Source: a virus
DNA: 64,000 nt
Virus record (IMG/VR): IMGVR_UViG_3300007511_000003
Location: 64,001 to 128,000 of that record
Strand: one strand, 5' to 3'
Positions 1,919 through 40,743 of this stretch are shown here, piece by piece (position 1 is the stretch's first letter; each line of letters begins with the position of its first letter). The notes beneath the pieces were generated by a model. It was not told where the DNA came from, ran no database searches, and saw only the letters and a program-made list of their open reading frames with translations. Position numbers and translations under genes: made by a program.

Positions 1919-2713
1919 TTACTCCACTGAAAGTAAGCTAGAGTCCTCCTGGATAGCACTGTAAAACGCGGGAGAACTTACAGCACTGGTTTCAAAACCT
2001 TGGACCCCATGTACCTGCCGATACACCAGCCTGTTACCTTTCTTGTAGAAATCAACAGGCCGGTTGGCAGATATATGACTACAATGCCCCAGTTCCTTCC
2101 CACAGTAGGAACAACTGTACTGGTCTACGTAGGCACCCATGGAATAACTGTTCATCTGCCCACTAAGGATATCCTTCACCAGGTCAGGATCCTTAGTGCG
2201 GTCAAACGCCAAGAGCTCCAGGAACTTCCAGACCTTTCCTTGACCGAACTCCGGCATCTTACGGAGGTAGGTATCGGCGATAACACCACGGGCTTTTGAC
2301 AGAACAGTGTTCTTATGTTCAACAAAACATGGTTTCCCTTTAAACGTCTTGAACGCCTGCATCCCTGCTTCAGGGTTGAACGCTACCATTGATGCCAGCG
2401 GGAACGCCACACCATTCCTGTTTGGTAAGTCTGTTGGAATCGTAATAACCGGCACCATCACAAAGTCCTCGAGGTTGTCAGAGATCTCGTAGGTTTTGCT
2501 GGCAAAAGGTAACCATTGGCTGATGTCTAGCGAGGTATCTCCGCTTTCCATTCCAAGGACCTCATTCCGCATTACGACCCTGCCCGAGGCTAAGGTCACA
2601 TCTTTTCGTTTGACCGCCTGGTGGACCTCCAGAGGGTTGCAAAGGGCTCTTCCACCGAGATCATAGTTGGCTGTCTTGTTCACAGGACGCCGACCTGGCA
2701 AAAATTGTGTCAT
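1919..2713 (-). CDS. prohead protease-like protein
   Basis: PNRNGVAF, KPCFVEH, YSMGA and CSYC motifs; directly downstream of portal. Confidence 0.6.
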   Translation of the reverse strand: MTQFLPGRRPVNKTANYDLGGRALCNPLEVHQAVKRKDVTLASGRVVMRNEVLGMESGDTSLDISQWLPFASKTYEISDNLEDFVMVPVITIPTDLPNRNGVAFPLASMVAFNPEAGMQAFKTFKGKPCFVEHKNTVLSKARGVIADTYLRKMPEFGQGKVWKFLELLAFDRTKDPDLVKDILSGQMNSYSMGAYVDQYSCSYCGKELGHCSHISANRPVDFYKKGNRLVYRQVHGVQGFETSAVSSPAFYSAIQEDSSLLSVE

Positions 2714-5700
2714 GACACGTCTCCATAGGGATTCCGACGACCAATAAAACGCTGTGCCATTCGTTGTCGGCGTTTGTTGTTGGGTTCCTTGGCAATCTCA
2801 CGGACCGCCTTGATTATCTTATCATTGATGGCTTTGTTGGCACGTGTTTGGTTGAACACGTGCCGTTTCTTGCCAGCTTTGTCGGTCGTAGACAACTCTG
2901 CGAGGTCTCCGAAATCCCTGTCCGTAAGGGTCTGGCGTTTGATAGACCGCAGACCAGAGAAGGAAAAATCATCGTCGTCCTCGTCATCACCTCCACCTTT
3001 AAGTTCCTTGATTCGGTCCTTAATCTCCGCGTCTTCCTCAAGGTCACTCATCAGGCTGTCAACAGATAGACCACCGGCAGCAGCCCACATCCGCAGAGGG
3101 ACCGGCACTCCCTTCTCGGTCAGGGTCTCCAATACTGTCAGGTACTCGGTGTCCGCCTCAGGCCGAAGGGCTTTATGCCAGTGCATGGTTGGAATAACCA
3201 GTTTACTGGTATCAGCCGTATACCACTGTACCATGTCGGTTGTCAACATAGGAGTTGTCCGACGGGCCGCCGACTCCTCAGGTGTCCTGTGTCGATAGTA
3301 AGGGTTAGGCTTTGGAGCATCCTCTTCCTTCTCAAAGCCATTGATAACCGAGATCAATGGAAACAGCTTGTTGTAAAACACCCTGTGGGTGGTCATGTCA
3401 CGGAACGCCCGCATGTGTTCAATAAACACTGACAACGCTACTTCCATCGTTCCATACGACATGTCTCCACTGTTATGTACCACGATACCGTTAGACACAA
3501 AGGCAGGTGCCACTTTGTGTTCCATGGTCAGGTCATACAAATGGGAAGTTCCAGCTGGTTTTACCTCCTGTACCGGGTCAAAGAAGTACTGGAGTTCAGA
3601 CAAGCGCACCAATCGTCTGACAACTACAGGATCAATTTGTTCCAGGATATCCAATAAATCGGAGTATAGACCTTTCTCAAAGTTAGAGTAGGGCAGGACT
3701 CCATCTCGATGTTTACCCTTCCCAACCGTTGATCCCAAGTATTTTGAGGTGCGGTGACCAAAGCCTTCAATTAAAACTGGTTGGCCTTCCGCATTTTCAA
3801 ACCACTCACCAACATTGGTTTCTCTGCGGATCCAACGGGATGCCAAGAAGTTTCGGATAGGTGGTATAGGTACCCCGAATGTACGTCCTTGTAAATCCGC
3901 TTCACGTACATCGTACTGGTTTTTTTCAGTATGGGCCAACCAAGGACGTAGACGCCTGTAAAATTTGTTCCCAAAATACCGAATAACACTTAACCATTTG
4001 GGGTGGTCAGTCATCCGAAAGCTGGGTACCCCGAGGTCCGCCAATAGTATCTGCATTTGGTCCAACAATTGGCCACTACTACTGCAAAAACGCAGAGCCA
4101 CAGTATCTTTCCTTTGGGCAACAGAGCCATCACCGTCAAGAAAAGCGGCAATGAAAGCCAATCGGCATTCCGTCGGGGCCTGAAGGATGGACCAAGGTAC
4201 TACTCTGTAGGCAGACGGATTGTTCACCTCGGATTTCCGTTTCTGTACGACCCCGAGTTCCTTCAACCAATGTACGACCTTTACCTCCTCGAAGGACATC
4301 TTGTAAACATCCGAATTGGAGGTACCCGTCACACCCTTAATGTTATACCTACGACCTTTCGGGCTACTTAAGGTCCGTTCAGGAACCACACCAAAAACAG
4401 AGGTAAAAGCCTCTTGGTATCGGTCAAGGACTCCCAGATTCGAATTCGTGATCGAAACCACGTTTTTCTTCTTAAGTGTGCCCTCAGACACGATAAGTCC
4501 TAACACATAGGCCAAATCGGGTGTCATTTCTGTCGGTTTGGTTGCAGCTTTTTGGGACCAACCTCCTTTAACCAGATAATCTGTGAGGTTCAGCCTCAGG
4601 GGTTCCGTCGCCTCCTGCCCCTGTGTGTCAATGCACAGGTAATCGGATTTTTGAAGGCGCTTCACAGGAACCCATTCCGGACGTAGGTCTTGTCCCAAAG
4701 TCAGTACCTCATGCTTCTTTGTTGTTGTGACATTATACCCGGATTGTGTAGTGGTTTTGACAACAGGTGATTTACCCCGGTACCACCAATGAATGGCTTT
4801 TGCAAACTCTCCAGAACGCCCCTTGACCAACAAATCTGTGGTGTACCCTTGGTCTTTACGTAGGCCCCTACGATCATACAATTGGTCAATAGGAATTAGG
4901 CCACGTTCCGTGTGAACATACGAGCCTTCCGCCAAACACAAAAAGCCCTCATTTATCCCAAGAGCCTGCATCTTGAGGTTGGAGGTCTCTGGAATAGTAT
5001 CCGTCCATTTCCAGGAGTCACCGCCGCTCCTGATTTCATTGGTATTCACATCATCACGTGTGGCAATCATGGCACCAACAGGATCTAAGTCCGCTTGTTG
5101 GAACAGGGCTACGATAGCCTTGAGCTCCTCATCCGTGGGTTCCCAATCCTCATCCCCTGCCACGATATGCAGGATCGACCGTTGCCTCTTTGCTGCCTCT
5201 GTCAGTGTACCCCTGTACAGGATCTTCTCCAGAAAGTAAATAGGCAGCAGCCGATGATACAACGAGGTACCACGATTGTTAAAGGTAAAGCTGCGCCTGG
5301 GTACATAAAGCGTGGTCAACGGATCGAGCGTCACCTCTGGGGCTCGCATGGCTCTCAGCATACCCGGGGACAGTCGTTCCTTCAGACGTTCGATGTGCGG
5401 TTCCCGGCTGTTGATGAACTCCTTCATGTCGGCCCCAATTTTCATCTTAATCAGAGGATCGGTGCCATACAAGGGAGTCGGAATCACAGTACAGTCGGCT
5501 ATGTTCTGTGGTATCAAATCAGTAAATAATTTCTCCGCCTTTTTAAACACGAGGGTGGATACGAAGGTGCCGAGCACGAGGTAATCTACACTCATTTCAG
5601 GCATTAGACTACGCATGTTCAGGCGGTCCAAATTGGACTCGAACACCTCCAGTTGCCTCTCATCGGCTCCGCTAAGAGTCCAATCACTGAAGGGTAGGGT

Positions 5701-5961
5701 ACTCATGAGGTCTACAGCCGCGCCGGCGATAGGGTCGTGGTAGTAGATATCCGTGTAAATGTCAAACAGTTGGCGAGGGTCGGAGGGTATTACACCATCC
5801 AGCATACCGTCCTTGATGGCTCCGAGTCCGGTATAACCCATCTGCATGTTGACATTACCACCACCCATACCAAAGGGTGACATCTGATAACTGGATCTTA
5901 CCTGAGGACGTTGGTCTGTCACAGATGCCCGTACGGCTATCTTCCGGCTACTTTGAAACAC
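2710..5961 (-). CDS. portal protein with LAGLIDADG intein
   Basis: Downstream of TerL; portal-like IYYHDPIAGAAVDLMSTLP and SYGTMEVALSVF segments; ~594 aa after intein removal. Confidence 0.7.
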   Translation of the reverse strand: MFQSSRKIAVRASVTDQRPQVRSSYQMSPFGMGGGNVNMQMGYTGLGAIKDGMLDGVIPSDPRQLFDIYTDIYYHDPIAGAAVDLMSTLPFSDWTLSGADERQLEVFESNLDRLNMRSLMPEMSVDYLVLGTFVSTLVFKKAEKLFTDLIPQNIADCTVIPTPLYGTDPLIKMKIGADMKEFINSREPHIERLKERLSPGMLRAMRAPEVTLDPLTTLYVPRRSFTFNNRGTSLYHRLLPIYFLEKILYRGTLTEAAKRQRSILHIVAGDEDWEPTDEELKAIVALFQQADLDPVGAMIATRDDVNTNEIRSGGDSWKWTDTIPETSNLKMQALGINEGFLCLAEGSYVHTERGLIPIDQLYDRRGLRKDQGYTTDLLVKGRSGEFAKAIHWWYRGKSPVVKTTTQSGYNVTTTKKHEVLTLGQDLRPEWVPVKRLQKSDYLCIDTQGQEATEPLRLNLTDYLVKGGWSQKAATKPTEMTPDLAYVLGLIVSEGTLKKKNVVSITNSNLGVLDRYQEAFTSVFGVVPERTLSSPKGRRYNIKGVTGTSNSDVYKMSFEEVKVVHWLKELGVVQKRKSEVNNPSAYRVVPWSILQAPTECRLAFIAAFLDGDGSVAQRKDTVALRFCSSSGQLLDQMQILLADLGVPSFRMTDHPKWLSVIRYFGNKFYRRLRPWLAHTEKNQYDVREADLQGRTFGVPIPPIRNFLASRWIRRETNVGEWFENAEGQPVLIEGFGHRTSKYLGSTVGKGKHRDGVLPYSNFEKGLYSDLLDILEQIDPVVVRRLVRLSELQYFFDPVQEVKPAGTSHLYDLTMEHKVAPAFVSNGIVVHNSGDMSYGTMEVALSVFIEHMRAFRDMTTHRVFYNKLFPLISVINGFEKEEDAPKPNPYYRHRTPEESAARRTTPMLTTDMVQWYTADTSKLVIPTMHWHKALRPEADTEYLTVLETLTEKGVPVPLRMWAAAGGLSVDSLMSDLEEDAEIKDRIKELKGGGDDEDDDDFSFSGLRSIKRQTLTDRDFGDLAELSTTDKAGKKRHVFNQTRANKAINDKIIKAVREIAKEPNNKRRQRMAQRFIGRRNPYGDVS
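3472..4938 (-). mobile_element. cis-splicing intein with LAGLIDADG homing endonuclease (489 aa)
   Basis: FL/CLAEGSYVHTERG start, SNGIVVHN/S end; LGLIVSEG and FIAAFLDGDG motifs. Confidence 0.92.
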
Positions 5962-19970: not shown

Positions 19971-20692
19971 CCGTTTACTCCTCTGTTATGTCGTGCTGTC
20001 CTCTGTAGGTACCGTTGTAGGGCCCCAACAGCAGGAAAAGTTTGCCCACCATTAGCCGCCATCCATCCATTGAATTTGGTCTCCAAGAATAACGTTTGAA
20101 GAACCAAAGACTGGTTCCTCAGCGTTATCAAAGGGACTTCCATCACCCTGTTTTGCTCCCTGGCTCCCGCTTTATTTACAAAATTGGGATCATAAGGACT
20201 CCAATAAAGTATATGCACACCCTTATACCACACCAGGTATAAACAAAGTGGTTTGTCTCCTGAAGACAGGATAAAATTAGACCGAGGGCCTAGGTAAAAA
20301 GCCGACAACAAACGACTTTGGGCAGGGAACCTGCTTATCAACGCTGCCACCGCGTCAGTGTAAGGAACACTGGTAGTATCCAGTTGGGCGAAACCCTCCA
20401 AGAATTCTGACAGGTGCTCGGTATTCCTGGTAAAAACGGAGTGGGCGGCGAGTATGTAACCACCTCTCTGTGGTATGTGTAAGTCCTGTGACCCTGAAGA
20501 GATGCAAAAGTCCACGGGTGAAGGGCCCGGTAATTCCCTGAGACCTTCCTTGTTTTTAACCGACCCGCCTACCATCGGTCGGCTAGGAGGGCCCTGAAGG
20601 TCAGTAAAGAATAATCGGTGGATCTCCAGTTTCCGGTCTTCCGTTACAACGTAGTCTTTTACCGGAAGGATCCAGTAACCAAGAGTTCTCAT
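19967..20692 (-). CDS. hypothetical, possibly degenerate class II glutamine amidotransferase fold
   Basis: GYILAAHSVFTRN and DKPL loosely resemble HNG..N and RPL motifs; no N-terminal Cys. Confidence 0.3.
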   Translation of the reverse strand: MRTLGYWILPVKDYVVTEDRKLEIHRLFFTDLQGPPSRPMVGGSVKNKEGLRELPGPSPVDFCISSGSQDLHIPQRGGYILAAHSVFTRNTEHLSEFLEGFAQLDTTSVPYTDAVAALISRFPAQSRLLSAFYLGPRSNFILSSGDKPLCLYLVWYKGVHILYWSPYDPNFVNKAGAREQNRVMEVPLITLRNQSLVLQTLFLETKFNGWMAANGGQTFPAVGALQRYLQRTARHNRGVNG

Positions 20693-21465
20693 TAGTAGTA
20701 CCCTAACAGTTTATGTTGTTGAGCAACCACCCGGATGTTATATCCTTGGTTCCAGTTCAGGATCATCTGGGTGATGCGTTGGAGTTCCTTAGTAGGAACA
20801 GGGCCCTTGGTGTTGTCAGCACAGGGCGTAAGGATGATTGGGTGTGACATAAAAGCGTGGTCTTGTAACAACCCACTGAAATGTTGTAATAACCAATCCA
20901 GGTCTTCTTGGTCTCGTACCACTGCCTTGGCATATACCTGGGGCATCTTCTCGATAACTTGGTAAAGGGCTGCCAGCACGTCGGCCCCCAATTCGACACC
21001 TGTATTTGGCGTCTTGATATCCAACGACACCTGATCAAAACAGTTAAAGGCTTGGCTGTCAATGATAGTACCGCTAGTCTCCAGGTTTGTTCGCAACCCT
21101 CGCCGTCGAAGTAAAGTCGAAAGGCGGGTTACTTGGGGGCGGTAGTGGAGAGGTTCGCCCCCTGTAATGGAAACCTCCACCACTTTACCTTTGACTATCT
21201 TTACCAATCGGTCCGCAAGCGAGGAGACCTCAGCCAAGGGGTGTTCTCCTACTGCCCAACTATCCTTGGTATCACAAGTAGTGCAGCCTACAGCACATCC
21301 GGATACACGGATAAATAGCCTGGGTACCCCTATGTTTATACCCTCCCCCTCCAAAGTCTCCTGGATTTCCATCACAGGGAGAACATCGTCGGGCACCTCA
21401 TGGATTCCCAGTTTCAAGAGGTTACACTTAAACTTGGGTACCACCACATTGATCGGCTTAATCAT
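20692..21465 (-). CDS. queE: 7-carboxy-7-deazaguanine synthase (radical SAM)
   Basis: ETLEGEG, FIRVSGCAVGCTTCDT, ITGGEP, LETSG, QQHK. Confidence 0.88.
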   Translation of the reverse strand: MIKPINVVVPKFKCNLLKLGIHEVPDDVLPVMEIQETLEGEGINIGVPRLFIRVSGCAVGCTTCDTKDSWAVGEHPLAEVSSLADRLVKIVKGKVVEVSITGGEPLHYRPQVTRLSTLLRRRGLRTNLETSGTIIDSQAFNCFDQVSLDIKTPNTGVELGADVLAALYQVIEKMPQVYAKAVVRDQEDLDWLLQHFSGLLQDHAFMSHPIILTPCADNTKGPVPTKELQRITQMILNWNQGYNIRVVAQQHKLLGYY

Positions 21466-23534
21466 CCTTCGACTCCTTCATAAAATTCAGTGTTCAGCGG
21501 GAAGTGTTCGTCCAACCAAGGTTGTATCCGTTTGCCTTCCGCACGAATCATTGCCATTGTCTCTTCTACATTTACATTGTAGCCAATTTCATCGCGTTGA
21601 CGTTCTAACGCCGACCGGATGTTGTGCAGGAGGTTTTTCTTGGTGTAATCCCACTTTTGCATGGCGTCCCCGGAAGCCCCTATGTCAAAGTCTACCGCTA
21701 GCCCTACGTTAAACTGGAAATGAAACGTCTCTGCCACTTTCTGCTCAACGCCGACTGTAGTACACCACTCCAGCAATCGGAGGACCAAAGGAATATACCG
21801 ATAGTTCACCTCCACTTCAACGCTGTCATGGACCATCATGGACGGGTAAAGGTTCGTTGGAACCCCTATCGACTGGAGTTCTTCCCCGTCAGGATCCAGC
21901 CCATATAAGTCCTGTAAGCTTTCCCACAGTTTTTCACTGTACAGGCGTGCAGCAAGGAATCCCAACTGGCTGGCGAATCCCTGAATAGGGCTGTTGGCCG
22001 CCCGTCGTTTCATGGCGGACACCAGACCAGGAACCTCTGTCATGTAAGCAAACAGGTTTCGCTTGAACCCCAGAGGGTTGTAGGTGTACAAACGGTCGGC
22101 ACTAAAATCGCATGTCCACTGGATCCAGTTGCCTGCCTTGAAAAACTTGGCAAAGAAACCGCCCTTCACCTTTTTCATCTCAGCTTCTGACTTTCCAGTG
22201 TCCCGAGCCAAAGACCTATCCGACTTACCATACATGGTCCCAAAGGTAATCACCTTTGAATCCTGCCGTTGTTCCTTTGTCACCTTCTCTACAGGTGTGC
22301 CAGTAAAGAACTGGTAGTTAAGTTTGTGGGGGTCGCCCTTCTCTTTTAAGTCGTCTCTGTGCCGAGCGGTCGGTTGCTGGCGGAACCGCAGACGGAGGTT
22401 GTGCACAACCTTAAACATCATGGCCAGCACGGCATCCTTGCTGATGATACCCCAACAACGCACCTCATGAGCGGCATAATCAAGCTTAATAACCAAACAA
22501 CCCACACGGGCAGTGAATGAACGTTTGATAAACTTGGCATCAGGACCGTGTTGGGGTGTTTGTTGGAGGCTTGGTTCTGAGCTATTACTGCGCCCTGTCA
22601 CAACATCCTTAAATCCATACTGCGGACGTAACCTGTGGTCCACCTTCCCGTCACGGGATTTACCAATCTTCTTGTAGAAGGCGTTGACATAGGATGTGAG
22701 CAACTTCTTGAGCTTGGACAAGGTGGTGAAGTCAGCCACCTCTGGATGTTCTTTGTACTTTTTCTGGAATGCGGCGTCTATTGAAGCGGCATCATCCTTA
22801 CCTGTTGACAGAGGTTCCAGCCCCATCACCTGGATAAACAACATCTGTTTGTGGGCGGCTTTATTGGGATCAAATACCCAAGCCTGGGTGTTACCAAATA
22901 TACCACCGCCTGGGGGAACCCCTTGTACTTCACACAACAATCGGTTGGCGGTCTGGACATGTTCTGACTCTCTCATCTGAGCCGCGAGTTCCTTCCGTTT
23001 GGCCAGCACTGGGGACCGTCGGCGGTCGCGGAGCAACAACAGGTATTCGATATCCAGATGGGCTCCTGTTTGTTCCATGCCACTCATCACATGGACAGTA
23101 TCCGACATCTGAGTAAGCAATAAGCGCCTATAAAACCTTCTGTAGTTGTGTTTACCTACCCGTTGGAGGGCCGCCCTTTCTTGCTGGAGTTCATGGACAC
23201 GGAAGCAAGCTTGAGTATCCATTGCACAATAGTCTAATACCTCGTCAGACAGGTCTCTGTTGGCTATGTCTTGACGGTCATCTTTAGAAAACCTGGCGTC
23301 ATAGTAAAAGGCGTTCCCATAGTAGGCCAATATTTGTGCCAACCCATAAGCTGGTGTACCGTACAGCATCAACACCTTCATGTTCTCGTCAAGGCAATTG
23401 TGAACCAAAACTGGTTTATCACTAATTTCATTACAAATAAATAGGTTGTGATTATCCTGTACCGTAACATCACATACCATAGGTGGGGAGTCAACCACCT
23501 TTACCGACTTAACTCTTACAGTTCGGGTAACCAT
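21462..23534 (-). CDS. polA: family A DNA polymerase, C-terminal part, starting with split-intein IntC
   Basis: TGRSNSSEPSLQQ, DYAAHEVR (motif A), RQDSKVITFGTMYG (B), NSPIQG, VHDS (C). Confidence 0.92.
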   Translation of the reverse strand: MVTRTVRVKSVKVVDSPPMVCDVTVQDNHNLFICNEISDKPVLVHNCLDENMKVLMLYGTPAYGLAQILAYYGNAFYYDARFSKDDRQDIANRDLSDEVLDYCAMDTQACFRVHELQQERAALQRVGKHNYRRFYRRLLLTQMSDTVHVMSGMEQTGAHLDIEYLLLLRDRRRSPVLAKRKELAAQMRESEHVQTANRLLCEVQGVPPGGGIFGNTQAWVFDPNKAAHKQMLFIQVMGLEPLSTGKDDAASIDAAFQKKYKEHPEVADFTTLSKLKKLLTSYVNAFYKKIGKSRDGKVDHRLRPQYGFKDVVTGRSNSSEPSLQQTPQHGPDAKFIKRSFTARVGCLVIKLDYAAHEVRCWGIISKDAVLAMMFKVVHNLRLRFRQQPTARHRDDLKEKGDPHKLNYQFFTGTPVEKVTKEQRQDSKVITFGTMYGKSDRSLARDTGKSEAEMKKVKGGFFAKFFKAGNWIQWTCDFSADRLYTYNPLGFKRNLFAYMTEVPGLVSAMKRRAANSPIQGFASQLGFLAARLYSEKLWESLQDLYGLDPDGEELQSIGVPTNLYPSMMVHDSVEVEVNYRYIPLVLRLLEWCTTVGVEQKVAETFHFQFNVGLAVDFDIGASGDAMQKWDYTKKNLLHNIRSALERQRDEIGYNVNVEETMAMIRAEGKRIQPWLDEHFPLNTEFYEGVEG
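23397..23534 (-). mobile_element. split intein C-half (46 aa)
   Basis: VCDVTVQDNHNL...VLVHN/C. Confidence 0.9.
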
Positions 23535-24593
23535 ATGAAGACCTCAGAAATACGTATGTTAGTGGAGCGGCGAGTGTTTGACCAAAAAATAAAGTTAACT
23601 CAAAAATTTGTACGAGACATGTCACCAAAACTCTTAGGATATTGCCAAAAGGAAGCTCTGCGAATTTATGGAGGTAAATACCCACCCTGGTGGGCTATTC
23701 TCTATAAAGTTATTTACAAGGACCACTATCGGTGCCGGTGTGGGTCCGAAAAACTAGCTTGGCAGGGTTGGGAAGGCGGTCTGGCGGAATACTGTTCCTG
23801 TAAATGTGCAGGGGCCTCTCCGGATGTTTTGAAAAAGAGGGAACATACTTGCCAACAAAAGTACGGTACTAAACATGTACAATCGGTACCTAGTATACGT
23901 GCTAAATTTAAACAGTCTATGGTACGAAACCAAGGAGTAGAATACACAGCCCAAAGCCCACGCTTAAAAAAGAAGATGCGTAAAACACTCAAAAAGAACC
24001 ATGGAGTCGAAGAAACTTTCCATTCCATGGTTCTTTATGGTAAAGCAAAGGCCACCATGTTACAGAAATATGGTGCTGAGCATAACCAACAGGTCCCCCA
24101 CCTGTTTGAACAACAACAAAGGTCAGGTTTTAAAATACGTACCATAAAAGTTAATGGGAAACGGTTTAGGGTACGTGGAGGGGAAGGTCATGCTATAAAA
24201 TACCTTGTCCACGAACTTGGGTGTTCTATAGACGAAATTTACACGACGGCGGTACAAGGTAAGCCATCCATCCCTTGGTATGACAATAAAAACAAGTACC
24301 ACATATATCACCCTGACATCTATGCCAAAGTTAAAGGGCGATGGTTTATTATTGAAGTCAAAAGCACGTATACAGCGGGTATAACCACCAAGTCTGGGGC
24401 TGAGTTTTACCGGCTACGTATGAAGGCAAAGGGTGTGGAAGAGGCCGGTTACAATTTCAGGACACTCCTTGTCCATTATGGACGGTCCCTCCCTCTTGAC
24501 TACCGTCCACTTGTTATTAAAGACATACACCAAAAGACCAGAAAACAGGTTAGGTCTGAAGTAAAACTTCATCGTCAGAGGTTAGGTTCTTAG
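23535..24593 (+). CDS. free-standing PD-(D/E)xK homing endonuclease-like protein
   Basis: YCSCKC, repeated KYG..H..Q units, YHPDIY...IIEVKS; likely start ATG 23535. Confidence 0.8.
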   Translation: MKTSEIRMLVERRVFDQKIKLTQKFVRDMSPKLLGYCQKEALRIYGGKYPPWWAILYKVIYKDHYRCRCGSEKLAWQGWEGGLAEYCSCKCAGASPDVLKKREHTCQQKYGTKHVQSVPSIRAKFKQSMVRNQGVEYTAQSPRLKKKMRKTLKKNHGVEETFHSMVLYGKAKATMLQKYGAEHNQQVPHLFEQQQRSGFKIRTIKVNGKRFRVRGGEGHAIKYLVHELGCSIDEIYTTAVQGKPSIPWYDNKNKYHIYHPDIYAKVKGRWFIIEVKSTYTAGITTKSGAEFYRLRMKAKGVEEAGYNFRTLLVHYGRSLPLDYRPLVIKDIHQKTRKQVRSEVKLHRQRLGS

Positions 24594-24846
24594 CTTTTAC
24601 ATAGGAACCTCGGGTAACCGACCAAACCTCATGGTCTTCAGTAACGCGAATGGATCCCCCTTCATAGGATATTTCCACCATTCGTTGGTCTGTTGGGTGG
24701 GTAGAAGTAGCTAAAAGTGGTTTATATTCTTCCTGTTGTGTTTTATGGTTATATGATAAAACCTGAGGAGGATTCCCCATAACCACCAAGTCTTTCATTT
24801 GTACCATACCACGTTCCGTTACCACCCAAGACTCTGGGTGTATACA
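24550..24846 (-). mobile_element. split intein N-half (98 aa)
   Basis: CIHPESWV block A; IRVTEDHEV block B TxxH; ends at a stop. Confidence 0.9.
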
Positions 24847-25944
24847 GAACTCACCGGCAATGGTGTCCCAAACAGGCCAATAAATGAATGGGAGATCGAA
24901 CTCCTGACGTATAATACGAAGGTCAAATTTGGCGTTGTGCATAACCAAATAACGAGGGGATTTAGGCTGCCATTCCACTCGTTGCCCAAAGTAGGCACGT
25001 AGTTCCTTAAATATTGTGCGGAACTCTGATCCTGAGAATGGGGTATCACGATGGTGTACAGGGAGGATAAAAGCCCTGTCGGGATTGTCTGAGAATTGGA
25101 GGGTCTGGAGTTGGTTATGATGAACGGACAGGTTCTTGGTCTCTGAGTCAACGGAAACCACGGGAGCCCGTTTAATGACCCTCATCATACGCTTAAACTT
25201 GCTCAACGTATCGATGAGGATTGGATTTGGCCGCACCTCGGAGGCCGTAAATGGGAGTCGGTCCAAAAACGCCGACATGAGAGTGCGTCCGATATATCCA
25301 AGAATATTGGCCTGGGTGATGGCTTCATCCATCTTTGTCTGACTCTCGGCATCGGAGTCATTGTCCATGTCGGTACCACGCAAAAAATAGGTGTGGTCGT
25401 ACCGTATGGTGTTGGTGACCAGGACAGGCTTCCCTCGCACTTTGATAGCATGGGGCCAACCCCTTTTATGTGAAATGTCATCCACCCGGGGTAACAGGGA
25501 TTCTGCCGCTTCATCCCCAAATACTATCACGTTCGTCGGATCCATCTTGCGAACAAACGCCTTTACTCGCTTAGAAGCAGCATCATTGGCGTGCTTACGT
25601 CGGGCACCTTTGAGGTGGTAGGTCTTGAAGAAATTGAAGTTGATGGTGGCATAAGCCACCGATTCCTCAATGGATTCTGGGTTGACAAGAGCACATTGTC
25701 GGCGGGCAAATTGTAGGAGGTTCGTGACAACGGTGGCGCCGGTTCCTCGATCCAATAACGCCTTTTCCTTGAGGTCTTTACCATCCACATGTTCTACCAC
25801 CAGAATAACACGGCGCCTGGCGGTCTTCCAGTTTTTCGTTATAGGGATAGCTACGTCAAATGCGGGGCATTCCTTTGGGCTCCAACCCTCTGGAAGATCG
25901 TTTTGGAAAGTCACATAACGCATCTGCCGGCGGTCTGTTATCAC
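24550..25944 (-). CDS. polA: family A DNA polymerase, N-terminal part (UDG-like + 3'-5' exonuclease) ending in split-intein IntN
   Basis: VDSET (ExoI), HNAKFD (ExoII), then GEF/CIHPESWVVTERG. Confidence 0.88.
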   Translation of the reverse strand: MITDRRQMRYVTFQNDLPEGWSPKECPAFDVAIPITKNWKTARRRVILVVEHVDGKDLKEKALLDRGTGATVVTNLLQFARRQCALVNPESIEESVAYATINFNFFKTYHLKGARRKHANDAASKRVKAFVRKMDPTNVIVFGDEAAESLLPRVDDISHKRGWPHAIKVRGKPVLVTNTIRYDHTYFLRGTDMDNDSDAESQTKMDEAITQANILGYIGRTLMSAFLDRLPFTASEVRPNPILIDTLSKFKRMMRVIKRAPVVSVDSETKNLSVHHNQLQTLQFSDNPDRAFILPVHHRDTPFSGSEFRTIFKELRAYFGQRVEWQPKSPRYLVMHNAKFDLRIIRQEFDLPFIYWPVWDTIAGEFCIHPESWVVTERGMVQMKDLVVMGNPPQVLSYNHKTQQEEYKPLLATSTHPTDQRMVEISYEGGSIRVTEDHEVWSVTRGSYVKAKNLTSDDEVLLQT

Positions 25945-26585
25945 TGGCGTGCTCCCAGTTGAGGGTGTTTTTGGATGGCAGACTGGGCGGCTGCCAGTAT
26001 ATCTTCTGGTGGTTGGTCGGCATTGATTTGGTCTACTGACCTGCCCCTGAACAAGGGAGATCGGTGTAGGTTCTCAAAGTTGTAGGCTACGCGGTCGAAG
26101 AAAGCCCGATCCTCTTGTTCCATTCGATCCAACCCACGTTCAATCCTGGCCATTGCTTTAACCGGATCCATCAGCAACAAAAGAGTCAGGTGTGGGAACA
26201 CTCCCTGGACGGCCATGGCAGAAGCGGCCCGAAAATTGTCAACTGAAGTACGGCGACCACCTACTTGGTAAGCGAACGTACTGTCAATAAACCTATCACA
26301 GATAACCCAGTCTCCTCGGTCCAAAGCAGGCTGGATTACCTGGTGTACGTGTTGACAACGAGCGGCTGACACCAACAATAACTCGGCATCCCCACATAGG
26401 TCAGTCTCTGGGTCCAGAAGGATACTACGCATCCTTTCTCCAGCGGGAGTCCCGCCAGGTTCCCTTGTCACGACTACCTCCACCCCTTGGGTCTCTTTAA
26501 CCCAAGGGATCAGACCTTTCAAAAGGGTGGTCTTCCCTGTACCTTCACCACCCTCAATAGCAATAAACCTTCCGCTCATAGCCAT
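25941..26585 (-). CDS. tmk: thymidylate kinase
   Basis: IEGGEGTGKTT, TREPGG, CDRFIDS..AYQ. Confidence 0.95.
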   Translation of the reverse strand: MAMSGRFIAIEGGEGTGKTTLLKGLIPWVKETQGVEVVVTREPGGTPAGERMRSILLDPETDLCGDAELLLVSAARCQHVHQVIQPALDRGDWVICDRFIDSTFAYQVGGRRTSVDNFRAASAMAVQGVFPHLTLLLLMDPVKAMARIERGLDRMEQEDRAFFDRVAYNFENLHRSPLFRGRSVDQINADQPPEDILAAAQSAIQKHPQLGARQ

Positions 26586-26695: not shown

Positions 26696-27229
26696 TCAGT
26701 CAGGACGCGTGTTTTCTTCGGTCGGCTCGTCGGCCCGTATGAGACCTACCTGGGAGGCAGTCACAGAAGCGGGATGTGGGTGGGCTTGCTGTTTCTCAGG
26801 TCGGGCATCCGGATCCACCGACTTGGGCTTTTGCTGGACCGCTTTGGGTTCTCCCTCGGGTTTTTCTTGGCGTCGGGGGCCTTTGCCTTTCCGAGAACCA
26901 GGAGGGGTTACAGGACCGCTGGAGGGAGGTCGAATGGTGGCCGCCGTTTTGGGTGGCATGATGGGTTTGGGTGTCGCTTTGGCAGGAGCCGGATCTGGTT
27001 TCGCAGCAGGTTCTTCCACCAGCAAGCCTCGCAAAACAGGTTCTAGGCTTTCCATGTTGACAGGTTGAGAATTACGAACCAACCGAGAGGCGCCCTGCGC
27101 AGCACACCAACCAAAGTAGGCTTTACTTGTTACGTGGTCCCAGATTCCCGTGGTTTTGCCTGATAGGAATCCCTTATCAATCAACACCTGTTGGATCTGG
27201 GTGATTTCTTTGTGTCCAATGTCGGTCAT
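26696..27229 (-). CDS. peptidoglycan-binding-domain protein with Pro/Lys-rich tail
   Basis: ITQIQQVLIDKGF..G...GIWDHVTSKA resembles PG_binding_1. Confidence 0.55.
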   Translation of the reverse strand: MTDIGHKEITQIQQVLIDKGFLSGKTTGIWDHVTSKAYFGWCAAQGASRLVRNSQPVNMESLEPVLRGLLVEEPAAKPDPAPAKATPKPIMPPKTAATIRPPSSGPVTPPGSRKGKGPRRQEKPEGEPKAVQQKPKSVDPDARPEKQQAHPHPASVTASQVGLIRADEPTEENTRPD

Positions 27230-27230
27230 G

Positions 27231-30200
27231 TTATTCGTTGCCTCCTGAGTCTTGTTTGGTAACCTTGAGTTGTTTATACTCTTCCTTCACTTGGTCGAGG
27301 TTACGAATATCATAACCTGCATCTACCATCTCCTTTACCTTGTCCTTGGCATCGTTCTTGGACTTGGCGAAGTAGAACCACTCTCCATTGGAACGCTCCC
27401 ACTTGACTCCCGGTACCTTGGCTTTCTGCCTCAGCGTCTTGGAAGCAGGTTGGGTGGGAATCGTAGCACAGATAAAGAGCTGGCCGTCTTGGATAACCGG
27501 GTACGGCCGCAGTATGGTTGGTTTTCCAACAGGGCGGAACCGCATACGGAAGAAGTTCTTGATATCCATCTGAGTGGCTTTAGGTACGTTCAACAGGCGT
27601 CCTTTGCCTTGGTCAAATGCCTGTTGAAGGCGACGAAGGGTACGGACGAAACTGCTCCGCATTTCGTAACCCTCGACTAAGGCATCCACCATAAGCGCCA
27701 TCTTTTGCTTGTTCGGGATATAGGCAAAAGCGTAAGCCGGGATCAGATGGAACCCAAGATCCTGCATCTCACTTGCAGGCGGAGCATCAGGGTCGTCGTC
27801 ATCAACGGTCACACAAATGATGTTGTTGGCGACCGTCAAGAACGCCTCAAAGCCATTACCTGCCTGCTTGTCACCTGTTGGAACAGGCTTCCGAACTTGG
27901 TCCCCACTTGGGCCCACCGGCTGTTCATCCTGGTCTTCGACTACCTCTGTGGGATCAACATCCATGCGGGGTTCTTCTTCGGCAGGAGGCTCTTCTTCCA
28001 TCTGTTGTTGGGCATCATCCATGAGATCTTCAACATGGTCTTCTGCCTGCTTCTTAAGCTGGTCTTTATGGTCCTCGGCTTGTTTCTGTTCTTCCTCCTC
28101 ATTGGTGGGCTCCTGTTCAACCTTAAGTTCCTTGATACCCTCACCTTCCGGCTGTTCGTCTGTAGGTGGAAGTCCTTCGTCCACCGGAGCCTCTGGAGTC
28201 TCCTCTGGTCCCATCTCTTGCGTTTGTTTCATAACCCGACGTAGGCGCCTACGTTCACGCCGCAATTCCTTTTCCAGTTCCTCGTTACCTTCTTGTACAG
28301 CCTGCTTGATCTTGACGGCAGTTTGTTTAATCTCCATCTGGAGTTCTTCAACCGTACGCCCGTCAGGCACCAAAGCACGCCGACGTTTTTGTTGACGTGA
28401 GGCTTTACCCGCTTTGGTCGCCGGGGCATTGGTTTTGTCACGCTGGACCTGAGCGTCAGAGCCAGTGTCTGGAACATTAACGGGCTCACCAACATCAATA
28501 ACCCCTACCGTGGGTAAGCCTAGCAAACCAACCAGACGTTCTTGGACCGGAGCGGTATCCTCAGACTGGATGATAAAACTCCGCATCTTGAAAGCCGACA
28601 CTGTTTGACCACTTGCCAGCTTGACCCTGATCTTGTTCTTAGTACCCCCAACAATAACACCATCCCCGAACTCTGTGTGGACACGGGCATTCACCGGGGT
28701 GAAATCATCCAACTCTTGCCCGTTGTCCTCCGCATAGTTGGCAAACGTCGATACCCCGAGTTCGTCCATGTATGGCAACACCTGCCCGTCAATGTAGGGC
28801 ACACCTACCATATACTGAGAACCCTCGAGGTCTGGGGCCGTAGCCACCAACCTTGGCTTTTTGTGGTGCTTGGGGTTGTTCTTATAGTTCTGGAAGTCCT
28901 TATGCTCTGCCTCCTTGTATGTGTGGAAGCCTTCCAGATACTGAGACAGGTTGGTCTCGAAATCGTTCTTCTCAGTGATCGAATCCAGTGTCATCGACAC
29001 CAGTGGAAGGTTCGGTACTCCATCGTACAGCGGGTTACCTTGCTCATCGAAACGAACCTTGGCCAACATTTTGGAGATCAAGCGGCTGATCTTGGTGACA
29101 TCAATGGATTGGTCACAAATCACCCAGTCAAAGTACACTTTGTCACGCTCGGCAAACTGCCCTTTCGGATCCGGCCGGAAGATACGCGACTCTGCCTGGT
29201 CCAACGCTCCGGGGCTCCACACCGACTCAACCCTAATCAACCGACTCGCCATTTGGAGGTTGAGGCCTTCCTCCAGAGACTTGCCCACACCGATCAGGAT
29301 CTGGATACGGTCATCCTTCATGAACTGGGCGACATGCTTGGCTTTCTCCGAAGCATGGTACCGAAGGGCCCGGCTCTGCAAGTCAGGAGGCAGGCCCTCG
29401 TACATGGCATCTGCTGATCGGTTGTAACCGCAGAACACCAGAATCTTGCCCGGGATACCCTGGCTGATGTGCTGGTTGCACAGCTTCGTAACCTGCATGG
29501 CTTTGGGGCTGACCTGGTCTGCGGGGTCCTTCAGGAGGGCTTCACCATCGTGGTCCATCGCAGGCGCCGACAGGAACTTTTCCATCCGTTGCATGTAGGG
29601 CCGTAGCAAAAACTCGATGTTCTCAGCTTCTACTTCATCACCAGACCTCAACTTGGACAAGAGGTCTTCGTTTTGGGCGATGAGCTCCAACGTCTGCTTG
29701 AGGATCGAATCGTAGACCGTCCGTTGGTTGGGCCTCATCTTGACAAAGTGGAAGTTCTCCACACGCTTTGGCAGGAGAGCCGCCCATTCCTTCCTCTTAA
29801 TGGTAACAAGGTTGGAAAACTGGCCTACTCGTTGGGCGATCTTCCGCTCAGCGTCAGGCTTCCAGCTCAAGACCTTTCCACCACGCCAATCCGAGGCATA
29901 GGCTTCGATGAACTTTTTCCTATTGCCAAAGGTAGCGGGGTCGATCATGTTAAACTGACCGACAATATCCGTCATCTGGTCAGTAACAAAGGTACCAGTT
30001 GCCAGCCTACGATAAGGGATATCTGCCGCTAGCCGTTGAGTAACCTGGCTACGAGTGGACGCTGGGTTCTTGACATTGTGGCTTTCATCCAGCGCGATGT
30101 AGTCGAACCCAAAGGACCGCAGCATCTCGCTGTTGTCACCAATCTTAATCGGTTCTGGACCGTAGGACTCTTCGCGGACACGACCCTTGATGAAGTCGTA

Positions 30201-37761: not shown

Positions 37762-38730
37762 TCATTTTTCTAGGTTGAACGTCTCAACCAGCTCTTCCCT
37801 AGTCATGATCTTGATGCCAAGGTTAACCGCTTTCCGCTCCTTGGAACTGCCAGTACCTTTAAGTTTCATCACCAGGACTGTCACTTTCCTGGAGATGCCG
37901 CTGGCGATAGTACCGCCCTCACGTTCGATTTGTTCTTGTAAGTCTTTATCCCTGAAGCCGGTAAACACCACAATCTCACCCGACATCTTGTCACCCTCTG
38001 GAGGAGCCACAGGACCTAGTGTTTCAATGGTAATCAGGCGTTTGATGGGTTTTACGAAGGCCTGGAATTTGGGAAATCCTTGGGCAAACTGCTTGGCACG
38101 CTTACTGCTGAACCCAGATACAGACAGGGCCATATGCTCCAAGTCCCGAGGGTTAGGTCTGTTAAGATCCATGATCTGCGGGTATTTCTCAACCAGTGGT
38201 GTTAACTGCCGTACACCAAAGCCAGGACCGAATACCCCAGAAGCCGCCATCAATACGGGCAGAGACACTGGATTCAAAGCTTTCTTAATCCCGGTGACGA
38301 TGGTGGTGGCCGTTTTATCCTGGATGCCAGGAACCGCCATCAAGTCTTTTTTCGTGGCTCGGATAACGGCTTCGATGGAGTCGATTCCATGAGTAGCCAA
38401 CCGTTGGATTGTACCTTGAGCAAAGTTTTCGACTTCAATGGCCTTAAAAAACCAAGCAATTTGTTTTACCAACTGTTCGTCGGTGTCCCCCGTGGCGCGT
38501 ATATCGACACCAGAGGAAGTCCATTCAAAGTTACCGTCTTCCGGTAATCCTGCCTTGCGGCTAGGAGCAACAACCTCCAAAATATGCGGGATAACATCTC
38601 CACTCCTTGTAATCTTGAGGACCGCACCAGGCCCTACCTTGTTGTCGTTGATGAACTTGGCATTGAAACCAGTTACCCGACGGATAGTTACCCCTCCCAA
38701 TCTAACACCAGGACGTACACTTTTAGCCAT
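37762..38730 (-). CDS. ligA: NAD+-dependent DNA ligase, C-terminal part (rest of OB, HhH, BRCT)
   Basis: LGGVTIRRVTGFNA, RSGDVIP, VPGIQDKTA, VVFTGFR; own AAGGGG RBS. Confidence 0.88.
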   Translation of the reverse strand: MAKSVRPGVRLGGVTIRRVTGFNAKFINDNKVGPGAVLKITRSGDVIPHILEVVAPSRKAGLPEDGNFEWTSSGVDIRATGDTDEQLVKQIAWFFKAIEVENFAQGTIQRLATHGIDSIEAVIRATKKDLMAVPGIQDKTATTIVTGIKKALNPVSLPVLMAASGVFGPGFGVRQLTPLVEKYPQIMDLNRPNPRDLEHMALSVSGFSSKRAKQFAQGFPKFQAFVKPIKRLITIETLGPVAPPEGDKMSGEIVVFTGFRDKDLQEQIEREGGTIASGISRKVTVLVMKLKGTGSSKERKAVNLGIKIMTREELVETFNLEK

Positions 38731-39760
38731 GGTGTATCCCCTTTAAAATCTGAGTGCGTGTCTTCCGATACCAACCTCGTGGCAAAACTATGCGTTTGGG
38801 GGAGCCGTTATCATTTTGCATAACCAAAAGTCGAAAGATAAAACCATCCTTCATTGTCTGTCGGGCTTTAGCACACAAAATGTGCCATAAACGGTCAGGG
38901 GAGCTTTTATGTAATCTATGGTTTGTTAATCCTGCCGTGTGTAAAGACTTTACTTCTATAAGTATGTTACGGTCCGGGAGGAACAAATCGGGGTAGTACC
39001 TACGGTTCTTTCCGTCAAGTTGGTAATATACAACCGGCACTTCGCGGTCACTAAATACTCGGATCCTTGAAGGATCCACCCCTTTTTTGTGGAGTAACCA
39101 ATCCAATGCTAGGTCTTCATATCCTTGTACCTGAACGACCCGGGAACCTAACGTATAAGAATGATAAAATCTTGTGCTGGAACAAGCATTACATGCCAAG
39201 CCTCGTTTAGCCAACACGGAAGAAGGGCGGGCCGTAAATAAGGCACCGCAAGAAAGGCATTTATGTTCTATTGGAACACTAATACCCTTATACACTCCTA
39301 TAGGCTGTAGGGCTTTACCTAATTTCTCCAACCTCTCACCGTATCTCTCTGTGGTATGTAGGCCATGTTTTGACGGGTTGCATGATCGACAACCAACACC
39401 ACGTTTAACAGCCTCTGTGGTATACCAATCCTGGGTATTACAAAACTTACATTGATACAGGTTTTTGGCATTCTTCAACCGACGATAACCTTCCATAACA
39501 TAAAAGGAAGAGTTACGGATTTCTGTCATATGGTTGCACATCGAATGGAAATTCTGCAACCTATCAGAGCAGGCAGGGCAGTTAAGGAACCCGTTTTTCG
39601 TGGTCCTGGGTTTAGTTATAAACCCATTACCGCAGATCTTACAATAATGGCTACAAGGTACGTGAACACCGGAATACCCGGAAAGGTACCCTACCAAAGT
39701 AGAATCCAAGGATTTAATATACTCTTGTTCTCTTACCTCGAGAGATTTAGACATACCCAT
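38723..39760 (-). CDS. free-standing PD-(D/E)xK homing endonuclease-like protein with Zn ribbons
   Basis: Several CxxC pairs; VQGYE, YYPDLF...LIEVKS. Confidence 0.8.
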   Translation of the reverse strand: MGMSKSLEVREQEYIKSLDSTLVGYLSGYSGVHVPCSHYCKICGNGFITKPRTTKNGFLNCPACSDRLQNFHSMCNHMTEIRNSSFYVMEGYRRLKNAKNLYQCKFCNTQDWYTTEAVKRGVGCRSCNPSKHGLHTTERYGERLEKLGKALQPIGVYKGISVPIEHKCLSCGALFTARPSSVLAKRGLACNACSSTRFYHSYTLGSRVVQVQGYEDLALDWLLHKKGVDPSRIRVFSDREVPVVYYQLDGKNRRYYPDLFLPDRNILIEVKSLHTAGLTNHRLHKSSPDRLWHILCAKARQTMKDGFIFRLLVMQNDNGSPKRIVLPRGWYRKTRTQILKGIHHG

Positions 39761-40743
39761 TACATCGGTTCCACTATGACAGTAGGTTTCAAAATACCAT
39801 GCTTAGACACGTTCCATTCTACACTCACCACCCTACATTTCACTATCTGATCCTCCATCAACATCTTGAAGGCTACGCTGTACCGAGGGTTGCCAGATGT
39901 GGCGCGTTTGTATATTGAGTCCTGTGTGACCACCAGACCGTCTATGGCAAACTTAGAGCTCTTCCGCCTCGCAATGAGTCTGTCAGAGAGTGTCTGGGCG
40001 TCCAGGACCTTATAGGCCTTGGCAGGAGCGACCGTGAATCCAAGCTGGTGTTTCAGGTAGTTGAGCTGTTCGGAGGGTTTCTTGCGTGGAACGATGAGTT
40101 CGTAGCACACCAAGGTGGCGTCTTTGAGGGCAGGGCTGACATCCGGGCGGTTGACCAACCCACCCATGAAATTCCGTGGGTTTGCGAAGTCCTTGGCGTA
40201 CTTCTTGAACGCCGTCTCGGACATGATGATCTCGGCCCGTACCGCGAAGGTGTCCTGTGTCTTGGGAAGCCCAAGAATTGGCACCATGGACGTTACATCC
40301 TGTCCGACCTTACCGTTACCTCGGGTAAACAGTTGGTACCGGCCCTTGGTACAGATGATAAGCATTGAGATGCCGTCCATCTTGTCCGACACCACGTAGG
40401 GCCCTGGGTTGGCGTCAAACCAACGGTCAAGGTCTGGAGTGTTGGGTTTGATCTTGTCGAGGGAACCCATCCAATAGGGCAGTTTTTGTTTCTTACCCTG
40501 ATCGACAGGAGCGCCTACTTTTTGGAGCAAAGGGCTGTCAGGGAACCTCTGGCGGAACGTATCCTCAATCGCGTCAAACTCGGCGTCTGACAAGAAAGGG
40601 CTTCCCTTGTAGTACGTGTTCTTGGCCCGGCGGTATAACTGACGTAGCAGCCGAGCGGACAACTTTGAGGCATAACCTCCAGGGTCTGCCTTTAGGGCTG
40701 TCAAATCGAACTCATACGCTGCCACTTCCCTCAACCTTTTCAT
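39760..40743 (-). CDS. ligA: NAD+-dependent DNA ligase, N-terminal part (adenylation domain)
   Basis: YY...SDAEFD, MGSLDK, KMDG, TRGNG, NPRN, IDGLVV, VAFK. Confidence 0.92.
   Translation of the reverse strand: MKRLREVAAYEFDLTALKADPGGYASKLSARLLRQLYRRAKNTYYKGSPFLSDAEFDAIEDTFRQRFPDSPLLQKVGAPVDQGKKQKLPYWMGSLDKIKPNTPDLDRWFDANPGPYVVSDKMDGISMLIICTKGRYQLFTRGNGKVGQDVTSMVPILGLPKTQDTFAVRAEIIMSETAFKKYAKDFANPRNFMGGLVNRPDVSPALKDATLVCYELIVPRKKPSEQLNYLKHQLGFTVAPAKAYKVLDAQTLSDRLIARRKSSKFAIDGLVVTQDSIYKRATSGNPRYSVAFKMLMEDQIVKCRVVSVEWNVSKHGILKPTVIVEPM

Follow-up and report, generated by a model that had tools for sequence, protein, structure and literature searches.

Fractured genes, in which an enzyme gene is broken by a split intein and a free-standing endonuclease gene lies between the two halves, were found in the GOS metagenomes by Dassa, London, Stoddard, Schueler-Furman and Pietrokovski (2009; PMC2677866). 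Eight types of host were reported, including gp41 helicase, IMPDH, DnaE, NrdA, NrdJ, DNA ligase, terminase and one protein of unknown function, and the named loci are gp41-1, NrdJ-1, IMPDH-1, NrdA-2, DnaE, ligase and terminase; the three open reading frames (ORFs) of these loci are on one strand with a spacer of 27–51 nt, and the endonucleases are of the GIY-YIG or Vsr-like type (PMC2677866). Antisense endonuclease ORFs are known from contiguous inteins (Gorbalenya, 1998; Gogarten, 2002; both as cited by Gosselin, Arsenault and Gogarten, preprint, 10.1101/2025.01.02.630785), and the preprint itself describes antisense LAGLIDADG and Vsr-like cases in actinobacteriophages, which are read there as a mini-intein invaded by a free-standing endonuclease. 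An out-of-frame endonuclease has been described in the cyanobacterial dnaX intein. Splitting of a gene by a homing endonuclease without any intein is represented by Aeh1 nrdA/mobE and by gp43 of an Aeromonas phage (as cited in PMC2677866). Here we analyze a stretch of 64,000 nt (positions 64,001–128,000 of the 168.9-kb IMG/VR virus record IMGVR_UViG_3300007511_000003; hereafter, the window) from an uncultured marine jumbo phage detected in marine metagenomes from two studies. In this window a family A DNA polymerase is very probably made as two polypeptides that are joined by trans-splicing of a class 1 split intein, and the inserted sequence, which consists of the N-terminal intein half (IntN), an antisense endonuclease gene and the C-terminal intein half (IntC), is very probably a mobile module.

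The locus shares with the loci of 2009 a DNA-metabolism enzyme of a probable marine phage, a split intein broken at the loop where endonucleases are usually inserted, and a free-standing endonuclease between the halves. The first-pass annotation of this DNA had assigned it to the fractured-gene architecture, and the assignment holds for an enzyme gene that a split intein breaks, an endonuclease being placed between, but not for the strand and the spacer, and is doubtful for the endonuclease family. Unlike the loci of 2009, the endonuclease gene here is antisense, abuts the start of IntC without a spacer and overlaps the IntN tail by 44 nt; its product has a canonical PD-(D/E)XK (PD-ExK) motif (DUF7487) and is neither GIY-YIG nor, with no Asp/His/Asp site, clearly of the Vsr type, and family A polymerase is not among their eight host types. 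With the contiguous inteins that carry antisense endonucleases, the locus has in common a nuclease gene that lies within the intein insertion loop and runs antisense to the host gene, but those inteins stay contiguous, the sense frame reading through, whereas at the present locus no sense frame stays open and each half has its own gene; their host genes code for Pol III alpha, a minor capsid protein, terminase and thymidylate synthase, and not for a family A polymerase. As in Aeh1 nrdA/mobE and gp43, an essential replication gene is divided by the gene of a selfish nuclease, but no intein restores the protein in those cases, whereas here the nuclease gene is flanked by a complete split intein; the NAD-ligase of the same phage, which is cut by a paralogue of the endonuclease and has no intein, is of the Aeh1/gp43 kind. 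Because each ingredient has a published precedent, the finding is not categorically new. What is new is the host enzyme and the site, the reversed and interlocked PD-ExK endonuclease gene, and a widespread module that has been unrecognised even in cultured phages. In the literature, covered partially and without InBase, we found neither an intein in a family A polymerase nor a split intein with an antisense endonuclease. The earlier suggestion that the site may be new therefore stands for the searchable literature only, and in sequence databases at least 29 clusters have an intein at the same site.

The polymerase is encoded by two ORFs on the minus strand (Table 1), located exactly at 21462–25944 as first annotated, and we call their products the N protein and the C protein. 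The N protein contains Exo I (VDSET, residues 265–269) and Exo II (NAKFD, residues 337–341), and is matched by PF01612 over residues 243–352 (9.9e-9) and by PHROG 17 'DNA polymerase'; the C protein contains Exo III (YCAMD, residues 102–106) and the polymerase motifs A (DYAAHEVR), B (RQDSKVITFGTMYG) and C (VHDS), and is matched by PF00476 (2.4e-36; 125.9 bits with a cut-off of 34.3) and by PHROG 17 (9.6e-66). PHROG 17 runs across both proteins in order and DNA_pol_A lies wholly in the C protein, while the exonuclease profile PF01612 (35.7 bits with a cut-off of 23.6) is itself cut, its positions 3–98 being in the N protein and 108–166 in the C protein (residues 44–115). The nearest deposited relatives of the polymerase, at 25–32% identity, are from jumbo phages, namely Vibrio phage GR7B, Ralstonia phiRSL1, Pseudomonas Lu11, Dickeya JA11–JA33 and Burkholderia BCSR5; the whole locus had no match in deposited phages by blastn. 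Alignment with the unsplit polymerases of GR7B, BCSR5 and JA13 places the break exactly at VWDTIAGE[FY]/CLDEN, and the GR7B polymerase is uninterrupted at the junction (VWDTIAGEYCLDEN). The alignment and the cut profile both bear out the first-pass reading that splicing would restore WDTIAGEF-CLDEN in the exonuclease domain. The predicted spliced product has 1010 aa, compared with 1018 aa for the GR7B polymerase. Exo I–III and polymerase motifs A–C of a family A DNA polymerase with 3'-5' exonuclease are complete in the two proteins, and, because every one of these motifs is intact, the polymerase is under selection.

The reading frames of the N and C genes differ, a stop codon follows IntN, and the minus strand between the two genes has no long ORF. 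Because the frames differ and no long sense ORF lies between the halves, the intein is truly split. An Rfam scan of 21000–26500 at E <= 1 gave nothing, including any sign of a group I intron; with the frames different, the sense strand closed and no Rfam match, the joining must take place at the protein level. Residues 1–230 of the N protein form a uracil-DNA-glycosylase (UDG)-like domain with weak UdgX/family 4 matches, and the match of the N protein to TIGR03914 (UdgX/UDG) is likewise weak (3e-4). This domain is present also in unsplit jumbo-phage homologues, and one relative bears the JGI label 'uracil-DNA glycosylase'.

The two intein halves agree to the residue with those proposed in the first pass (CIHPESW...TEDH for IntN and ...VHN/C for IntC). 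IntN scores 28.9 bits against NCBIfam TIGR01445 (intein_Nterm), above the cut-off of 24.5, and its end is the usual split point, about 26 residues past block B; in Pfam, the halves gave PT-HINT at 0.0043 only. The nearest solved relative of IntN is the naturally split NrdJ-1 intein (8ubs, E 2e-6), and neither IntC nor the endonuclease had a match among solved structures by sequence. Cys367 of block A directly follows ...AGEF, and this Cys1, together with T435 and H438 of block B, is invariant in 23 N-fragments of the same site, which have 23–43% identity to the N protein. D22 of block F, N46 and the +1 residue C47 are invariant across 7 IntC homologues, and H45-N46 corresponds to block G; the residues of a class 1 intein in blocks A, B, F and G and the +1 Cys are all present. 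IntN is acidic, with a net charge of −5, and IntC has a basic first strand (+3), a pattern reported for NrdJ-1 and IMPDH-1. The GC content is 0.432 in IntN, 0.431 in the endonuclease gene and 0.377 in IntC, against 0.50 in both exteins, and the insert composed of these three parts is compositionally foreign. When a complex of IntN and IntC was modelled, with 10 and 14 extein residues attached, respectively, the score was 0.85 (0.87, 0.84 and 0.85 in individual runs) and that of the best control 0.01; 58 of 80 solved complexes attain this mark, as do 2 of 110 mismatched pairs, and the runs had at least 88% of contacts in common, with a predicted local distance difference test value (pLDDT) of at least 73 for the partner. 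Contigs from two other samples have single-nucleotide polymorphisms (SNPs) within IntN at 24630 and 24820, one of which changes E439 to K, the family consensus at that residue, while the other is silent in a Val codon.

The endonuclease gene between the halves is intact. From N- to C-terminus, its product has a region rich in Cys, tandem helical YGV repeats and a PD-(D/E)XK nuclease domain, and is matched by Pfam DUF7487 (6.6e-28; 98.6 bits with a cut-off of 27) and by PHROG 3339 'homing endonuclease' (2e-11). E217, P260-D261 and E274-V-K276, a canonical PD-(D/E)XK signature, are invariant among 10 database homologues and 2 locus relatives, which have these three parts in common, and all 18 invariant positions of the family, including E217, D261, E274 and K276, are retained. 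In the AlphaFold2 model (mean pLDDT 84), the fold of the C-terminal domain matches TnsA (Z 7.6), Hjc (6.4), Vsr (6.0), I-Ssp6803I (5.4) and I-Bth0305I (5.0), all of the PD-(D/E)XK, restriction-endonuclease-like type, at modest Z values of 5–7.6 and with weak Foldseek matches. From sequence and fold, we assign the protein as a PD-(D/E)XK homing endonuclease with putative activity. We do not place it in the Vsr-like/EDxHD family, which is defined by an Asp/His/Asp site; the motif here is E...PD...E-V-K, with no conserved catalytic His; the folds of Vsr and I-Bth0305I are no closer than those of TnsA and Hjc, and Vsr and GIY-YIG profiles gave no match to the protein at E <= 0.1.

At both of its ends the endonuclease gene is interlocked with the intein halves. 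The start codons of the C gene and of the endonuclease gene abut head to head, and an identical CATATG start pair is present in L010, a locus having the module at a different polymerase site. The Shine-Dalgarno-like CTGAGGT precedes the start codon of IntC by 6–9 nt in the window and in L010 and L012; because the reading frames of the endonuclease differ at this place, the conservation is of nucleotides and not of endonuclease residues, and it provides direct sequence support for a probable independent translation of the C-half. A scan for sigma-70 promoters and terminators gave results at chance level. The heptamer CTAATTT at 23422–23428 is antisense to the E-I-S codons of an extra loop in IntC. 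It stands at −113 of the endonucleases of the window and L010 and about 40 nt before a third paralogue; none is present within 200 nt of the ligase paralogue, and the window is not enriched in it (6 found, 7.8 expected). The I-S codons are ATT AG(T/C) in 5 of the 5 endonuclease-bearing loci examined and ATT ACA in the endonuclease-free L011, and CTAATTT may be a promoter element embedded in IntC. A mimic of the homing site is not present in the insert, to which the 60-nt junction, when reconstituted, aligned with a best local score of 9, against 9.9 on average for shuffles.

Table 1. Coordinates of the split polymerase locus in the window, of its neighbours, and of the related module in Dickeya phage JA11.
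Feature	Position	Strand	Description
N gene	24550..25944	-	464 aa: 366 aa of polymerase + 98-aa IntN
N-extein, 366 aa	24847..25944	-	UDG-like N-terminal domain, Exo I, Exo II; ends ...WDTIAGEF
IntN, 98 aa + stop codon	24550..24846	-	N protein residues 367-464, Cys367...T435-E-D-H438...LLQT
C gene	21462..23534	-	690 aa: 46-aa IntC, then Cys47-LDEN, Exo III, polymerase domain
IntC, 46 aa	23397..23534	-	M1...block F V-C-D22-V-T-V...N-H-N-L-F...V-L-V-H45-N46
C-extein, 644 aa + stop	21462..23396	-	Cys+1-LDEN, Exo III, polymerase motifs A, B, C
Free-standing homing-endonuclease gene, 352 aa	23535-24593	+	Opposite strand to polymerase; intact
Head-to-head start codons	23532..23537		C gene ATG (-) abuts endonuclease ATG (+): palindrome CATATG
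Shine-Dalgarno-like CTGAGGT	23541..23547	-	6 nt upstream of IntC start; within first codons of endonuclease
Convergent overlap, 44 nt	24550..24593		3' end of N gene (IntN tail) / 3' end of endonuclease gene
Thymidylate kinase gene	25941-26585		Upstream of N gene
Radical-SAM gene	20692-21465		Downstream of C gene; apparently QueE-like
JA11 helicase module	L020:2574-5680 = MH389777 128551-131657		JA11_156 + JA11_155, 'putative DNA repair helicase'

For the distribution of the module in environmental phages, 1.84 billion cluster representatives were searched exhaustively by HMMER with a query composed of the last 37 extein residues and IntN, and 538 matches were obtained at E <= 1e-3, including 22 at E <= 1e-30. 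We sorted the best 150 of the 538, with clusters at 50% identity, by the ten residues ahead of Cys1. The polymerase site of the window, [WYF][DE]xx(A/G)xE[FY], was found in 29 clusters, 27 of them split and 2 contiguous (mini-inteins P0032 of 154 aa and P0019 of 148 aa), and a ...WD context in 4, all split. About 15 clusters, again all split, have the Exo III site (...Y before CAMD), and 9 have the site at polymerase motif A (DYSAHEVR; 7 split and 2 contiguous); the remainder of the best 150 are in other contexts, such as Walker-B DE, ...RKD and ligase KxDG, and are mixed. At the site of the window, three states are observed: a contiguous mini-intein, a split intein with the antisense endonuclease, and an intein-free gene (GR7B and others).

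By alignment-based scans, 2 related loci were identified in viral contigs and 8 in metagenomes. L012 and L018 have the polymerase site of the window, an antisense PD-ExK endonuclease and an IntC ending in VLVHN/CLDEN, and L017 has IntN after ...GEW with the same antisense endonuclease, its downstream IntC being unconfirmed. The Exo III site carries the same antisense endonuclease in L010 and L014 and is without an endonuclease in L011, and L016 has, in a different host gene, an antisense ORF whose C-terminus is like that of the window endonuclease. Because IntN, endonuclease and IntC recur at differing sites and genes, the module exists as a unit at several sites. A search of viral contigs with the N protein alone gave nothing, and a word-index search with the first 130 residues of the C protein returned the query itself alone, which is a limit of the index and not an absence. 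In a tree of IntN (98 columns), polymerase-site inteins fall in one weakly supported group with the sites intermixed, and the insertion-site labels cluster without being monophyletic; because this tree is poorly resolved, we draw no direction of transfer. L011, a related viral contig, contains upstream of its polymerase a large SNF2-type helicase gene (L011:2-5524) with apparently two contiguous inteins, one having LAGLIDADG-like motifs and the other (CFPAQT...VLVHN/C) having a long in-frame insert.

Homologues of the module are present also in cultured phages. When IntN and the endonuclease were compared with deposited phages by tblastn, they matched adjoining places on opposite strands in the Dickeya phages JA11 and JA33, whose helicase is annotated as two coding sequences (CDSs) separated by an unannotated gap of 1.1 kb. 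A homologous IntN, preceded by ...TPKRKD, makes up the end of the first CDS (insertion site ...TPKRKD/C), the gap contains an unannotated antisense PD-ExK ORF of 375 aa, and the second CDS begins with a homologous IntC, which ends in VLVHN/C and has the same extra loop before it; all three parts are thus homologous to those of the window, and the host gene is a helicase, not a polymerase. In JA13, which is 95% identical in nucleotides, the helicase is in one piece, and the homologous module is present or absent among cultured Dickeya phages of 95–99% identity. In the paper on these phages, the two helicase ORFs were seen and their function was left open, with no intein recognised (PMC6143709). 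On the basis of these genome sequences, the comparison of JA11 and JA33 with JA13 is the best available evidence for a probable mobility of the module and for its compatibility with a viable phage.

The explanation that we strongly favour is a fractured gene made by a mobile module. The N-half would be translated in an operon running from the thymidylate kinase gene, and the C-half would start at its own ATG behind the conserved GAGG ribosome-binding site. IntN and IntC would then fold together into one HINT domain, in which Cys367, T435/H438, Asp22, His45-Asn46 and Cys+1 would perform the four standard splicing steps, and the full-length enzyme so produced would have its native junction, ...AGEF-CLDEN..., located after Exo II and before Exo III. 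Together, IntN, endonuclease and IntC would be one mobile module of foreign composition, a former mini-intein probably having been split by a backwards PD-(D/E)XK gene that occupies the loop in which an intein's nuclease is usually found. In co-infecting phages, polymerase alleles that lack the intein are presumably cut by this nuclease, and repair would copy the whole module in. The sequences show the anatomy of the locus, the conservation of its residues, the recurrence of the module, its presence or absence in near-identical cultured phages and its foreign composition; the splicing activity, the nuclease activity with its target, and the timing of expression we infer.

Several points weigh against this explanation. 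IntC scores 13.4 bits against TIGR01443, just under the cut-off of 15.6; the score of the complex model may reflect a likeness to, or a memory of, the solved split inteins in the PDB, and not binding; the endonuclease ATG has no recognisable ribosome-binding site before it, because of which expression of the endonuclease is uncertain; and an intein-free allele of this phage was not seen among the contigs compared, because of which ongoing homing at the polymerase locus is unsupported. The low score of IntC would suit halves that splice no longer and hold the two polymerase pieces as a tight non-covalent clamp, for which a precedent is the split NrdA of Aeromonas phage Aeh1, reportedly assembled through remnant interaction domains and without splicing (PMC3045599); the phage analyzed here also tolerates two-chain enzymes, as its intein-less NAD-ligase cut by a paralogous endonuclease illustrates. 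However, a mere clamp would not conserve catalytic residues, and Cys1, TxxH, the block F Asp, His-Asn and Cys+1 are all kept and are invariant in relatives at 23–43% identity; moreover, the fold would probably suffer if about 144 aa of intein stayed within a helix of the exonuclease core, between Exo II and Exo III. We consider a clamp alone to be quite improbable.

The lack of a ribosome-binding site before the endonuclease and of an intein-free allele would rather suit a fixed, vertically inherited relic, with an inactive or unexpressed endonuclease and an intein that persists since its loss kills the polymerase. Such a relic, which we regard as unlikely but worth serious weight, also agrees with the loss of the endonuclease in some relatives (L011 and the phage's own dnaX split intein) and with an IntN tree too poorly resolved for a proof of transfer. 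It is disfavoured by the endonuclease ORF, intact with all invariant family positions, by the two further endonuclease paralogues in the genome, by the presence and absence of the homologous module in near-identical Dickeya phages, and by the GC content of the insert, which is still far from that of the host gene. We find it scarcely credible that the two ORFs arose by misassembly or belong to a pseudogene in decay, with another polymerase serving the phage: the record is a genome fragment with an estimated completeness of about 65%, which leaves room for a second polymerase, but the same proteins are predicted on three contigs of differing sources (169 kb, 168.9 kb and 96.6 kb), a contig of another sample, with 3 SNPs, spans the C gene, the endonuclease gene and the greater part of the N gene, each half has its full length and every motif, and the layout is common to dozens of diverged relatives. 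Contigs of several samples have the same arrangement, and those compared contain no alternative joint.

In the window, every gene but one between about 18.8 and 32.6 kb is on the minus strand, and the split polymerase belongs to a tight operon, having 4-nt overlaps with both neighbours. The order of this operon is syntenic with that of Vibrio phage GR7B, whose locus has GTP cyclohydrolase I in addition; this context suggests genes for 7-deazaguanine DNA modification.

The same genome contains a second split intein, in a clamp-loader/DnaX-like AAA+ gene that lies before the window (L009:1129-2953; G000:C1 about 26729-28553). This gene is cut after the Walker-B motif ...FILDE (ILDE/C), and the 226-nt gap has no endonuclease ORF; no remnant and no significant match was found in this spacer by tblastn with the window endonuclease. 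The clamp-loader and polymerase inteins are 32% identical in IntN (E 3e-10) and 44% in IntC (E 2e-9) and have the same extra loop, and the occurrence of two related split inteins in one phage raises the question of how cross-splicing is avoided. Concerning the two paralogues of the endonuclease located elsewhere in the genome, one of 345 aa (38723-39760) cuts the gene for NAD-dependent DNA ligase, without an intein and on the same strand, in the OB-fold region, leaving two genes (39760-40743 and 37762-38730, minus strand; span 37762-40743). A 1083-aa ORF at 2710-5961 (minus strand) has a contiguous intein (CLAEGSY...VVHN/S) with an in-frame LAGLIDADG domain; its host protein is apparently portal-like, and it gives the strongest TIGR01445 match of the genome (35.5 bits).

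It is possible, although we hold this view tentatively and think it more doubtful than not, that IntN, the antisense PD-ExK endonuclease and IntC form a distinct, co-adapted composite mobile element, and not the outcome of a chance insertion. Each partner's coding sequence would then hold expression signals of the other, with the ribosome-binding site of the C-half lying in the first codons of the nuclease and the extra ...EIS... loop of IntC possibly holding the nuclease promoter. The unit would move among at least three sites of family A polymerase and among helicase, ligase-like and other jumbo-phage genes, and the backwards orientation may tie the expression of the nuclease inversely to transcription of the host gene. 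If this is true, the polymerase and clamp-loader split inteins of one phage must be naturally orthogonal.

With the explanation that we favour, namely a polymerase rebuilt by trans-splicing and interrupted by a mobile module, family A polymerase would be added to the enzymes rebuilt by natural trans-splicing, the defined site being located between Exo II and Exo III. The fractured-gene layout exists also in a reversed and interlocked form, which recurs across many jumbo phages from the environment and is present in cultured Dickeya phages as well, and the module would account for a published puzzle, the two-piece helicase of JA11 and JA33. Stages of the proposed route can be seen among present-day loci, as a contiguous mini-intein, a split intein with the endonuclease, and a split intein without it (L011, at the Exo III site). 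The relatives found here provide many and varied split inteins of the Cys1/Cys+1 type, akin to the fast NrdJ-1 intein, and the two related pairs coexisting in one phage would serve as a natural test of orthogonality for protein-ligation tools.

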